A DNA stretch of 64,000 bases, taken from a virus. Taxonomy: Duplodnaviria > Heunggongvirae > Uroviricota > Caudoviricetes. The stretch is from IMG/VR virus record IMGVR_UViG_2541047802_000007; one strand, 5' to 3'. Positions 25,466 to 62,308 of the stretch are shown here, in pieces. The position numbers were made by a program, and so were the translations under genes. Below the pieces are notes generated by a model. It made no database searches. It worked only from the letters and a program-made list of their open reading frames with translations, and had not been told where the DNA came from. How positions within the stretch are numbered: the stretch's first letter is position 1; each line of letters starts with the position of its first letter.

Positions 25466-25552
25466 ATGATGAATTGTCCAAAGTGTGGTCATGCGGCACA
25501 CACAAGGAGCAGTTTTCAAGTAACTGAAAGCACCAAAGAGCGTTACTGCCAG
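25466..25552 (+). pseudogene. ogr: 5' fragment (29 codons) of ogr-like Cys4 zinc-finger late activator, truncated by the Mu-like insertion
   Basis: MMNCPKCGHAAHTRSSFQVTESTKERYCQ then TGA supplied by Mu end; resembles P2 Ogr N-terminus. Confidence 0.8.
25548..25552. repeat. 5-bp target-site duplication GCCAG (copy at Mu right end)
   Basis: Identical 5-mer at 62172..62176 immediately outside the other Mu end. Confidence 0.85.
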
Positions 25553-25645
25553 TGAAGCGGCGCACGAAAAGCGCGAAAGCGTTTCAAATAAAATACGAAA
25601 ACTCAAAACTTTCGCGCTTCAATTGAGACAGTTGTTTTATGTATG
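25553..25645. repeat. Mu right-end attR region (transposase binding sites)
   Basis: Terminal sequence resembles recalled Mu right end. Confidence 0.7.
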
Positions 25646-26092
25646 TCAGTTTCGTTTACATTTATATGTCTTAAAAATATTCACATCATCTCGGATATAA
25701 AGATTTTTTCCTGATTTATCAACGATAAAATACTTTATAACCGCAGGATTTCTAGTCAAAGCATAGAGATAATCAGTCCCTTTAATCTTTTCATCCTTGT
25801 CTTGTTCGTCAATTTGGCCTGTTTCTATCTGAGTGTATAGTTCACCTGTATCAAGGTCTGTCCATGACCCCATATCAACGCCCATATGCATACGAATACC
25901 GTGGCAGGTCCAAAAACCAGAGGCAGGGGCTTTATTTGCAACACTCTTATCTGGATCTATCCCGGCGGACCTTAAGACTGCATCAGCAGCCACTTCAGGA
26001 TCAAAATCTTTTTCTTGAGCGTGATTGACTGAGGAGGCGGTTAGTACGAATAGGCTGATGATGGTACTGATTAGCAATTTTGATTTTTTCAT
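25646..26092 (-). CDS. 148-aa predicted secreted/periplasmic protein (signal peptide), AT-rich; accessory gene next to Mu right end
   Basis: N-terminal MKKSKLLISTIISLFVLTASSVNHA signal-like sequence; low GC; lies between mom and attR. Confidence 0.6.
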   Translation of the reverse strand: MKKSKLLISTIISLFVLTASSVNHAQEKDFDPEVAADAVLRSAGIDPDKSVANKAPASGFWTCHGIRMHMGVDMGSWTDLDTGELYTQIETGQIDEQDKDEKIKGTDYLYALTRNPAVIKYFIVDKSGKNLYIRDDVNIFKTYKCKRN

Positions 26093-26136
26093 CTAATATG
26101 CTCCGTATGTGAGTAAATACATAAATTTATATGATA

Positions 26137-26874
26137 CTAATCAGAACTGCTTTTTGGGTATGGCTGAATCCTGAATAGTTTGGTATTTAGCCGCTTTCTT
26201 GCTCGCTTGTTCAGGAACCTGATGTAGCGATACTGATTAAATTTGTGCACCACGGCACGCTCTTTATTAGCCCGTAAATACATGCCTCGTTGTCCACCGC
26301 GCTTAATTGCGTTCATCGTTATCTCGTGATACCACTCACCATCCAGCTCGTAGAACGTGCTTTCATGGCTGCCAATAAAATCAAAATTTGACGCCTGATA
26401 CACAACGCCAGCACGTCCGCAGCGTTCGTCTGCAAAAGACTGAACCCACTCCACTGACGGATACAGTAACCTTATGGTTTTCAGTGCATAACTGATGGCC
26501 CGTGATTCAGAGTTGCGGGGCATGTCGTCGTGTAGCCACATGCGGTTCAACTCCATATAGCCCCGGTTATCCGTTTCAAGCACGACACGACGACCAGAGT
26601 TGGGGTTAAGGGCATATCCCCACTGGAGAACGCCAACCAGATCGCGTCCGCTGAATACTCCCAAGTGGAGGTAAGAGTTATTCACAAAACGGCGGGAATA
26701 GTGCTTTGTCTGAATAATTGTGCGGGCCAGCCAGCAGGATATGGTTTCAACGCGCAGCTCCTTTGAACCATAGCCAACAATCTGGCTTTCATACTCAATA
26801 ACGCACGGTTTCGTCAGAATGCGTGATTTCTTCTCTTTTCCCACAATGTTTCTCCGTGGGATGCTCGCAGGCAT
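26137..26874 (-). CDS. mom: Mom DNA-modification protein (true start probably internal to the listed ORF)
   Basis: Position directly downstream of and overlapping com; size class. Confidence 0.7.
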
Positions 26875-26983
26875 TCAGCATTATGATATGACGTTTGCAA
26901 CGCGGACACCTGATTTCAATGTGATCAAAGGAATCCGCCTTAAATAACAGTTTGTTGCAGTTTTTACAGCGAATTGATTTCAT
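26795..26983 (-). CDS. com: Com, zinc-finger translational activator of mom
   Basis: 62-aa product matching recalled Mu Com ([16 protein letters not shown]...). Confidence 0.85.
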
Positions 26984-27041
26984 CTCACCTCCTTTGCATC
27001 AATTCGCCACTATCTTAAAAAACATCGTGGGTTGAGTGTGG

Positions 27042-27659
27042 TTATTGGGGCATAATCGATCTGTATTGCCGATCGATTTGATTGATTCGATCGTCGTTTT
27101 CTATATGCGTTCGTTTCGCGGGGTGTTTTTTATACAGAGTTGACAGAGCCACATCATAGATCAATGCAACCTGCTTGCGGGGGATTCCTTGTACTAATAA
27201 ACGCCCGGCCTGCTCCCATTCCGCTTTGGTTAGTTTAGGTGGTCGCCCACCAATACGGCCTTTATTTCTGGCGGCAGCAAGTCCAGCCATCGTTCGCTCG
27301 ATGATTAGTTCTCGTTCCATTTCAGCCAGGGCACCCATAACGTGGAAGAAAAAACGCCCCATTGGAGAAGATGTGTCTATGCTGTCGGTAAGACTGCGAA
27401 AATTAATCCCTCGCTCCCGTAGTTCCCCGACGAGGGAAATCAGATGTTTCATGCTTCGCCCGAGGCGATCCAGTTTCCAGACAACCAGTGTGTCACCTTT
27501 TTGAAGGCGCTTTAACGCGCGTTTTAATCCAGGTCTGTCTGTCCTTGTTCCGCTTAATTTATCTTCAAATATTTGTTCACATCCTGCACAAACAAGAGCG
27601 TTTCGTTGCAGGTCTGTATTCTGGTCATTTGTTGATACCCTTACATAGCCAATCAGCAC
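27042..27659 (-). CDS. gin: Gin serine DNA invertase
   Basis: Product begins MLIGYVRVSTNDQ..., serine recombinase/resolvase family, adjacent to G segment. Confidence 0.9.
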   Translation of the reverse strand: MLIGYVRVSTNDQNTDLQRNALVCAGCEQIFEDKLSGTRTDRPGLKRALKRLQKGDTLVVWKLDRLGRSMKHLISLVGELRERGINFRSLTDSIDTSSPMGRFFFHVMGALAEMERELIIERTMAGLAAARNKGRIGGRPPKLTKAEWEQAGRLLVQGIPRKQVALIYDVALSTLYKKHPAKRTHIENDDRINQIDRQYRSIMPQ

Positions 27660-27703
27660 TCTGGATCTCCCGTTTAAAAGCGCAAATCACGCCATGCAGG
27701 CCG

Positions 27704-60893: not shown

Positions 60894-60900
60894 AGCGCAC

Positions 60901-61122
60901 CTAGTATCGAGACGGCCAAATATCTTGCGGTGTCATTCCCAGTGCATCTGCAATGATTTTCTCCGCTTTCGGATATCTCTTATCCAAAGCATTTTTTAAT
61001 GTTGAAGACGAAAGATGATTAGATCTTCCCAATTCAGCTAGTGACATATTGCGTTTTCGTAGCTCTGCAACGATGTCAGCTCTGTGCCAATCTTGGCGGT
61101 TAGTTCTTTTATTCATATGCAT
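60901..61122 (-). CDS. ner: Ner DNA-binding early regulator
   Basis: 73-aa product with Ner/Nlp motifs (DWHRADI...IWPSRY). Confidence 0.85.
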
Positions 61123-61307
61123 TTCATGTAATCCTTTCAGATTCCCCCGTGAGCTACGCTATAAAGTAGCTCACGGCATATCGTGCAATGTAGTGTGGAA
61201 TCATTTTTAAATCAATAGTGATTTGAAATGATTTATCATGATTTCATATAACAGCATGATTTTTATATGAATTTATTTTGTCTCTATTGAAATCACTAGG
61301 ATTTTAA
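61123..61307. promoter_or_regulatory. Early operator/promoter region between divergent c and ner (also the expected transposition enhancer region)
   Basis: AT-rich divergent intergenic region with 11-bp perfect inverted repeat ccgtgagctac/gtagctcacgg. Confidence 0.6.
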
Positions 61308-61832
61308 ATGATGTCTTTTGAAATCAAAGAATGGTTTAATGCGAAAGAGCTGGAAGGGATGCCTGGTGTACCAAAGTTGGCGACTAACATTACCAGGAAA
61401 GCTGTGGCGGAAGATTGGGTAAAACGTCAGCGTCACGGTGGGAAAGGTGTCGCTTATGAGTATCACATCAACAGTCTGCCAGAAGAAACACGCAGGGCCA
61501 TTAAAGGAGCCTCACTTTCTGATAAACCAGTGCATACATCAATCGTCTATACAGTTGATGAGAGGCTAATTTATGCAATGAGTTTCTTAACACCAGATGA
61601 GCAGGCCGCAGCAGTGGAGATCATTCGTGTAGCAGGGATTAAAGGACTTATGCCTACAATTGTCAGTAAAGATAAGGCATTAGAGGCATTAGGGATTACT
61701 GTGGAGCAACAGAAAACCCTGCAAACTCTTCAGGCATTACCACCGGAAAAAGTGAGAGAGATTTTGTCTCAGTATGAAGGCAAAGAACATAATTTCCCTG
61801 TAAGAGAAAACGATGTAAAGAAAGCTGTATAA
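61308..61832 (+). CDS. c: Repressor c (Mu-type winged-helix DNA-binding domain)
   Basis: 174-aa product; N-terminus resembles the DNA-binding N-terminus of the transposase (WxxAKEL..PGxPK). Confidence 0.8.
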   Translation: MMSFEIKEWFNAKELEGMPGVPKLATNITRKAVAEDWVKRQRHGGKGVAYEYHINSLPEETRRAIKGASLSDKPVHTSIVYTVDERLIYAMSFLTPDEQAAAVEIIRVAGIKGLMPTIVSKDKALEALGITVEQQKTLQTLQALPPEKVREILSQYEGKEHNFPVRENDVKKAV

Positions 61833-61999
61833 CAACCAGGTAATAGCTAAGACATAAACTTCACTCCAGGTAATTACATATGTAAGATACCCAAACAGTG
61901 ATGATTGTTTTTGACACACATCACTTGCTGAAAGCCTGGTTGTTACCGTTTTTGAAGCATTTTTGAAGCTGTACTTGAAATGATGCGTGAAGTAATTGC

Positions 62000-62171
62000 T
62001 TTTCGTGTCTTTAATGAATCAAAAGCTGTTTCCAACAATCTTTCGCGTTTCAAGATGTAACGGCTAAAATCTGTCCTACAGGCTTGCAAGCCCCACTAAA
62101 TCTAATCCCGCCAAATACCGAATAATCCAATGTCCTCCCGGTTTTTTTCGTACTTCAAGTGAATCAATACA
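62000..62171. repeat. Mu left-end attL region (transposase binding sites)
   Basis: Reverse complement reads TGTATTGATTCACTTGAAGTACGAAAAAAACCGGGAGGACATTGGATTATTCGG... Confidence 0.75.
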
Positions 62172-62176
62172 GCCAG
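62172..62176. repeat. 5-bp target-site duplication GCCAG (copy at Mu left end)
   Basis: Identical to 25548..25552. Confidence 0.85.
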
Positions 62177-62308
62177 TGCCAAAATATTAACTGCGGGAGC
62201 ACTTTTGTTACCCATGAAACAGTGGTCCGGTTTATTGTGACACCCGCACTGATTGCTACTGCTCCTCCACATCCATTGCCAGGTGGTCAGGGGCATATGA
62301 ATTTTTGA
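62177..62308 (+). pseudogene. ogr: 3' fragment (43 codons plus stop) of ogr-like late activator, separated from its 5' part by the Mu-like element
   Basis: In frame with 25466..25552 once Mu and one TSD copy are removed; gives 72-aa Cys4 protein. Confidence 0.8.

Follow-up and report, generated by a model that had tools for sequence, protein, structure and literature searches.

A D108-type Mu-family prophage lies within the ogr late activator gene of a P2-family prophage of Escherichia coli

Introduction

How can the two halves of one small regulatory gene come to lie 36.6 kb apart, and what does this mean for the prophage that the gene belongs to? The question is raised by a stretch of 64,000 nucleotides (hereafter the window) from the IMG/VR virus record IMGVR_UViG_2541047802_000007 (Caudoviricetes), in which two short open reading frames (ORFs), at 25466..25552 and 62177..62308, are the pieces of an ogr gene, which codes for the late activator in P2-family phages. 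The DNA between the two pieces is that of a Mu-family phage. An earlier note on this window, made from the sequence alone, proposed that a Mu-like element had split ogr, that its removal would restore an intact gene, and that the P2-like prophage should be unable to express its structural genes unless a P4-type Delta protein complements it.

We show below that the structural part of this proposal is correct, and that its functional part holds only to some extent. Very probably, a phage of the D108 type has transposed into the ogr/B-type activator gene of a P2-family prophage integrated at ssrA, in an E. coli that is a close relative of S88.

The break in ogr

The 5′ fragment of ogr (25466..25552, plus strand, 87 nucleotides, codons 1–29) starts with ATGATGAATTGTCCA, and its translation, read directly, is MMNCPKCGHAAHTRSSFQVTESTKERYCQ. 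It includes Cys4, Cys7 and Cys28, that is, only the first CxxC knuckle, and tblastn aligns it to residues 1–29 of the restored protein with 100% identity. Translation then meets a TGA (25553..25555) that the inserted element contributes with its three initial bases, and the truncated ogr stops there after 29 codons, as the earlier note had read it. The 3′ fragment (62177..62308, plus strand, 132 nucleotides) comprises codons 30–72 and a TGA stop, and completes the zinc site with Cys30 and Cys35, its second half. The insertion point is located exactly between Gln29 and Cys30, and the window contains no uninterrupted full-length ogr ORF.

Both junctions can be read to the base. The element starts at 25553 with TGAAGCGGCGCACGAAAA (TGAAGCGGCGCACGAAAAGCG), which is the right end of Mu and D108, and ends at 62171 with GTACTTCAAGTGAATCAATACA (TTTTTCGTACTTCAAGTGAATCAATACA), which is the reverse complement of the left end of Mu; downstream of the element come GCCAG and then TGCCAAAATATTAACTGC. 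The pentamer GCCAG directly flanks the element on both sides (25548..25552 for the left copy and 62172..62176 for the right copy), which makes it a 5-bp target-site duplication. The target consensus of Mu is N-Y-S-R-N, and GCCAG fits it.

When the element and one copy of GCCAG are removed in silico, the two fragments join in frame into 219 nucleotides, which code for exactly the 72-amino-acid protein that had been predicted. This protein matches the Pfam family Ogr_Delta (PF04606) over positions 1–47 of the 47 positions of the profile (E-value of 9.2e-21, 74 bits, the curated cut-off of the family being 26.3 bits), and PHROG 603 (transcription regulation, E-value of 9e-28). It is 100% identical, over 72 amino acids, to the products of intact ogr genes annotated in several E. 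coli prophage records, for example WP_000980501.1 in S88. It is 56% identical to P2 Ogr, and the four zinc-binding cysteines of the two proteins all align; in the joined ORF these are C4, C7, C30 and C35, arranged as C-X2-C-X22-C-X4-C. A search of the PDB returned no solved structure of an Ogr relative. The profile and alignment matches go well past anything that chance would give, and confirm the assignment of the split gene to the Ogr/Delta family of late activators, a family which acts on late transcription by way of the alpha subunit of RNA polymerase.

We also note that the Mu end has, at 62159, a GTG in frame with the 3′ fragment, which could in principle yield a hybrid peptide of 49 amino acids devoid of C4 and C7. 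A database search for this hybrid ORF, starting in the Mu end, found no record of it.

The empty site

If the element was inserted into a pre-existing gene, the sequence without it should be that of other genomes. Among the matches listed for a 2,000-bp excision product, six complete E. coli genomes have 100.0% identity to it. They include those of MS7163, S88 and N53, in which the site carries gene D, a gene annotated as "ogr/Delta-like zinc finger family protein", the gene of a BRCT-domain protein and ssrA. When the element and one copy of GCCAG are taken out of the complete window, the remaining 27,376 bp align to S88 with one mismatch and no gaps. There is no Mu insertion in the ogr gene of S88, MS7163 or N53. 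The restored sequence is therefore a natural sequence, common in E. coli genomes, which confirms the observation. The sole difference from S88 is at position 21428 of the window (T here, C in S88), inside the tape-measure gene.

Searches for the junction between ogr and the element gave no match among 5,426 complete E. coli genomes, the GTDB species representatives, IMG/VR and the JGI metagenomes. Since it is seen in one assembly and in no other collection, it could be that the assembly wrongly joined a Mu-like prophage from elsewhere to the ssrA prophage. We consider such an artefact extremely unlikely: both junctions coincide exactly with the ends of the element, a perfect direct repeat of 5 bp which fits the Mu target consensus stands on either side, and the removal of the element and one repeat gives a natural empty-site sequence, which would not be the case with a mis-join.

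The inserted element

The insert (25553..62171, minus strand, 36,619 bp, with attR at 25553 and attL at 62171) is a complete D108-type prophage of the Mu family (Muvirus). It is 97–98% identical to Mu at the nucleotide level over about 30 kb, the divergent parts being the immunity end, the G segment and the extremity of the right end. Its nucleotide identity to D108 is 96.7–99.3% over the whole length, with the exception of the part of the G segment that codes for the variable portion of the tail fibre. The 1,500 bp of the left (immunity) end are 99.8% identical to D108, and the 2,200 bp of the right end 99.3%; the termini of D108 carry annotated A-binding sites in these matched regions.

End-to-end matches exist for 46 of the 54 proteins of Mu, in most cases with 93–100% identity (71–79% for gp6, U and U′). 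Among these 46 are transposase A, MuB, Mor, C, terminase, portal, capsid, sheath, tube, tape measure, baseplate, Gin, Com and Mom, and all essential Mu genes are full length in the element. The products of c and ner are matched almost end to end but have diverged from those of Mu (30% and 49% amino acid identity, respectively), and S, S′, gp7, gp14 and gp15 either vary or have been replaced relative to Mu. The c repressor (61308..61832, plus strand, 174 amino acids) is of the D108 type and matches Pfam HTH_Tnp_Mu_1 with an E-value of 2e-51. Transposase A (58905..60893, minus strand, 662 amino acids) is 93.5% identical to Mu A, MuB (57928..58866, minus strand) is 99.7% identical to Mu B, and both have their Pfam domains. 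The earlier description of the insert as a Mu-like element with a target-site duplication was right, and the element can now be ascribed to the D108 type.

We propose that the transposase A and MuB of the phage itself carried out the integration, and that a staggered 5-bp cut at GCCAG gave rise to the target duplication. The insertion parts the first pair of cysteines of the zinc site (C4 and C7) from the second (C30 and C35), and the TGA at the terminus of the Mu end halts the translation of ogr after 29 codons.

An identical 662-amino-acid transposase is found in 1,408 blocks of public assemblies. We read ten of the corresponding insertion places; they have ten different flanks, none of them is in ogr, one is within the immunity region of a lambdoid prophage, and the flanking 5-mers fit N-Y-S-R-N at nine of the ten. 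A relative with about 96–99% nucleotide identity is inserted in ldtD of E. coli BLSE177-2012, with a 5-bp duplication of its own. The diversity of these flanks suggests that this type of phage can land almost anywhere, and the integrity of the genes, together with the many insertion sites of identical copies, suggests that the D108-type insert is probably active.

The host prophage and its late promoters

On both sides of the element (1..25552 and from 62177 onward), the window and the S88 prophage annotated beside ssrA are colinear. The genes follow one another in the order: 3′ part of gene A, small genes, a 469-amino-acid cargo gene, portal and terminase, capsid, lysis, tail, baseplate, D, ogr, a 160-amino-acid cargo gene, ssrA and smpB; the P2-type order Q-P / O-N-M-L-X-lysis-R-S-V-W-J-I-H-G-FI-FII-E-T-U-D-ogr is present. 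In S88 the early region of this prophage codes for CI, CII, Fil and an integrase, which indicates that the host prophage belongs to the P2 family and is of the 186/Fels-2 type. According to the S88 annotation and the list of ORFs, the late control gene D (24297..25397, plus strand), which is the last tail gene, is immediately upstream of ogr, as in P2. The integration site ssrA (62941..63303, minus strand), which codes for the transfer-messenger RNA, was located on the attR side by ARAGORN and by the S88 annotation.

The sequence TGT-N12-ACA, which we take to be the recognition element of the Ogr family, occurs in each of the three late-promoter intergenic regions: at 5964..5981 in the divergent P/O region, at 13710..13727 upstream of V and at 18467..18484 upstream of FI. 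About 0.12 such sites would be expected by chance in the 482 nucleotides concerned. The presence of these dyads before the late operons suggests that the regulon which the broken activator would control is in place.

Does the prophage retain another activator? A tblastn search of the window returned only the two fragments, and a search of the complete S88 prophage locus found a single copy of ogr; as the earlier note had assumed, the prophage holds no second intact paralog. The 29-amino-acid product keeps one half of the zinc site, so that the loss of the activator encoded in cis is a safe conclusion: the peptide would be inactive and the prophage would have no late activator of its own. To our knowledge, precise excision essentially never occurs in Mu-family prophages, and the lesion would therefore be permanent rather than a reversible switch. 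The switching on of the late genes would then depend on an Ogr or Delta protein whose gene lies at another place in the genome.

An earlier lesion in gene A

The prophage carries another lesion. In the 3′ part of the replication endonuclease gene A (1..752, plus strand), a unit of 26 bp (CCCCTTGGACTCGTGGCAATAACTGT) is perfectly duplicated in tandem at 329..387, in 2.3 copies bounded by the 6-bp repeat CCCCTT. This duplication disrupts the gene: it shifts the reading frame at codon 673 of 805 and leads to a stop at 397..399, hence to a product of 695 amino acids. Once the duplication is removed, the C-terminus of the protein aligns in one piece, with 92–98% identity, to gpA of Fels-2-type records, including Fels-2 itself, Cartapus and vB_EcoM-813R9. 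The duplication is common to S88, MS7163 and N53, and gene A of S88 is marked "frameshifted" by PGAP. Since these three strains have the duplication but not the Mu insertion, the duplication in gene A came first.

The late transcription of P2 normally also requires replication and gene A. It may be, then, that the prophage whose ogr was hit had been impaired beforehand through gene A.

Two observations weigh against gene A being certainly inactive. The 695-amino-acid product retains the catalytic domain (Pfam Phage_GPA, residues 188–510). The identical duplication is found in diverged prophages (96–98% identity, with different cargo) of unrelated E. coli from mouse, pigs and cat, whose A genes are all flagged "frameshifted"; that the duplication is shared by diverged prophages means that the prophage is not proven to have been defective already. 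As for the explanation as a whole, it draws on 64 kb of the source genome, and S88 serves as the guide to the integrase, CI, the beginning of gene A and further ogr or delta genes; the junction itself is supported by a single assembly. The sequences point to a 26-bp duplication that either recurs by slippage at a hot spot, or is tolerated, or is possibly reversible. As for its frequency, the count of genomes obtained with a short query that spans both copies is uninformative, because overlapping pieces join on unduplicated DNA too.

Fate of the late genes

The earlier note held that the structural genes would be off unless P4 Delta complemented the missing activator. The loss of the activator encoded in cis stands. 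That this lesion silences the prophage, with Delta as the only way out, is supported in part: the lesion in gene A is older than the insertion, and S88 has a second, intact ogr, which makes a second ogr likely in the source genome too.

P4 Delta and P2 Ogr both activate the late genes of P2 and of P4, and P4-like satellites are present in almost half of E. coli genomes (PMC8628076). In S88, which differs by one base from the excised window, a second P2-like prophage lies between trhP/cyaR and yegR (NC_011742.1, 2169276..2205467) and contains an intact P2-type ogr coding for 72 amino acids. Its product differs from OgrK of E. coli K-12 only at residue 57, and presumably matches the sequence of P2 Ogr. 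A composite query found two places in S88 and three each in MS7163 and N53, as could be the case if these close relatives had additional ogrK-like copies, the locus having been located in S88 only.

Activators of the Ogr family can largely replace one another at the late promoters of P2, and chromosomal cryptic ogr genes reportedly complement a deletion of ogr in P2. By analogy, it is plausible that a resident Ogr, and not P4 Delta alone, could complement the broken gene in trans.

These observations lead to an alternative, namely that the break in ogr has no phenotype at all, either because another Ogr or Delta protein (from a P2-type ogr at cyaR or from a P4-like satellite) acts in trans, or because the frameshifted gene A within the window already blocks development. 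We regard this as a serious possibility, which falls just short of what we would call probable. The intact ogr of S88, the additional places hit by the composite query and the dual specificity and abundance of P4-type activators all speak for it. However, the restored Ogr and that of the cyaR prophage are only 56% identical, so that activation of the ssrA promoters by the latter is argued from analogy; the truncated gene A product, as said above, keeps its catalytic domain; and the second prophage of S88 is itself defective, a capsid gene split by ISEc12 and a frameshifted integrase gene, even if its ogr is unaffected. That prophage also carries a GTP pyrophosphokinase gene and a DUF7380 cargo gene.

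Chance or selection

The prophage at ssrA has two defence genes among its cargo. The 469-amino-acid cargo gene (1660..3069, plus strand) lies between a DinI-like gene and the portal gene, the position of the "old/tin" hotspot of P2; its product matches the PADLOC defence protein PD-T7-1 (E-value of 1.3e-196) and has no Pfam match. Between the tail genes S and V, on the opposite strand (11935..13635, minus strand), a 566-amino-acid protein of the AIPR family is encoded (Pfam AIPR, E-value of 1.6e-25; PADLOC AbiU, E-value of 1.7e-24), which is cargo of the abortive-infection type.

It could thus be imagined that the insertion was selected, either because it locks the P2-family prophage and its defence cargo (PD-T7-1 and AIPR/AbiU) in the chromosome, or because the D108-like phage disables a competing phage or the helper of a satellite. 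The presence of the two defence genes would fit the former, and there is another example of a D108-like phage nested in a prophage: at locus L016 (GCA_034542035.1, JAWVRC010000062.1, attL at position 1723 of the locus), a D108-like copy with the identical transposase adjoins a lambdoid immunity region (HTH_3 repressor, P22_Cro and YdaT). But ten other copies are found at ten unrelated sites, the absence of the junction from the collections searched gives no sign of recurrence or spread, and the choice of target by Mu-family phages is near random, insertions in dispensable prophage DNA being those that survive. Selection has no support beyond its plausibility, and we hold it to be very unlikely.

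We are just as sceptical of the stronger proposal that a D108-like phage, by removing the sole late activator encoded in cis, permanently turns a P2-family prophage into an immobile island. If it were true, the island would keep PD-T7-1, AIPR/AbiU and the tail genes, while being unable to kill its host or to help P4-like satellites freely, and one would have to think of a phage-driven domestication, or of a competition between phages, that acts on a regulatory gene. It is more parsimonious to consider the transposition of the D108-type phage into ogr as a neutral, essentially random event in dispensable DNA.

Comparison with known systems

Like P2 Ogr, the B protein of 186 and P4 Delta, the restored protein has 72 amino acids and the C-X2-C-X22-C-X4-C site, its gene is downstream of D and beside att, and TGT-N12-ACA sites precede the late operons. 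What sets this gene apart is that it is broken into 29 and 43 codons by an insertion of 36.6 kb. The host prophage also differs from P2 proper, being of the 186/Fels-2 type with its CI and CII regulators and its integration at ssrA.

The insertion has all the features of insertional mutagenesis by Mu or D108: exact termini, a 5-bp duplication of the N-Y-S-R-N type, a full set of phage genes and a target inactivated by simple insertion. Contrary to laboratory Mu mutagenesis, it is a natural event, in an E. coli background of the clinical type, and the target is the regulator of another prophage. With D108 the element shares the immunity region and the D108-specific gene 56; the variable tail-fibre parts of the G segment differ from those of both Mu and D108.

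Intact ogr genes are often kept outside functional prophages, as illustrated by the cryptic ogrK of E. coli K-12, in a P2 remnant at cyaR, and by the cyaR prophage of S88. The situation here is the reverse: in those cases an intact ogr is kept in a decayed prophage, whereas here the prophage is largely intact and ogr is broken. Prophages broken by mobile elements are known from other loci, for instance the cyaR prophage of S88, whose capsid gene holds ISEc12, the phage 500465-1 record, whose gene A holds an IS100-type element (IS21 family), and the lambdoid prophage at L016, which holds the D108-like copy. In contrast to prophages disrupted by insertion sequences, the inserted element is here a complete temperate phage, so that one prophage is nested in another.

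No new mechanism is involved, since insertional inactivation by Mu-family phages, the function of Ogr and the decay of prophages by secondary insertion are all well established; the locus is a new instance of textbook Mu insertional mutagenesis and not a new kind of system. Its interest is that it provides a clean natural example of a prophage within a prophage, for which the exact ancestral empty site allows a reconstruction base by base. Regarding annotation, the two short ogr pieces should be recorded together as a single pseudogene, the prophage at ssrA should be entered as having no late activator of its own, and the D108-like prophage is the element which is most likely to be active.

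Other features of the two prophages

The right end of the element, between mom (26137..26874) and attR, contains a gene coding for 148 amino acids (25646..26092, minus strand). We considered that it might be a novel moron and rejected this idea: according to the D108 annotation it is the known D108-specific gene 56, which is not present in Mu. Searches of Pfam and PADLOC returned no match for its product.

In the G segment (27764..31230), the variable parts of S and S′ and the chaperones U and U′ differ from those of Mu and D108 (about 52–85% identity). The full-length S (511 amino acids) is in frame with the constant part, which places the G segment in the orientation expressed for that fibre. 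At the other end of the element, the c repressor gene is transcribed towards attL and the 3′ fragment of ogr.

Two records which might have been taken for active relatives carrying this ogr, "Escherichia phage 500465-1" and plasmid p13P477T-2, were rejected as such: both have chromosomal flanks, and both contain insertion sequences or many frameshifts, which makes them prophage regions or assembly products.

Last, the region between ogr and ssrA holds two features. Directly 3′ of ogr, a GC-rich hairpin (62316..62333) is followed by TTTTTATT on the plus strand, while the prediction was reported on the minus strand; it is likely to be a terminator. Next to it, between ogr and attR, the 160-amino-acid cargo gene (62335..62817, minus strand) is annotated in S88 as coding for a "BRCT domain-containing protein"; its product has no Pfam match and matches PADLOC PDC-S48 weakly (E-value of 1.8e-07).

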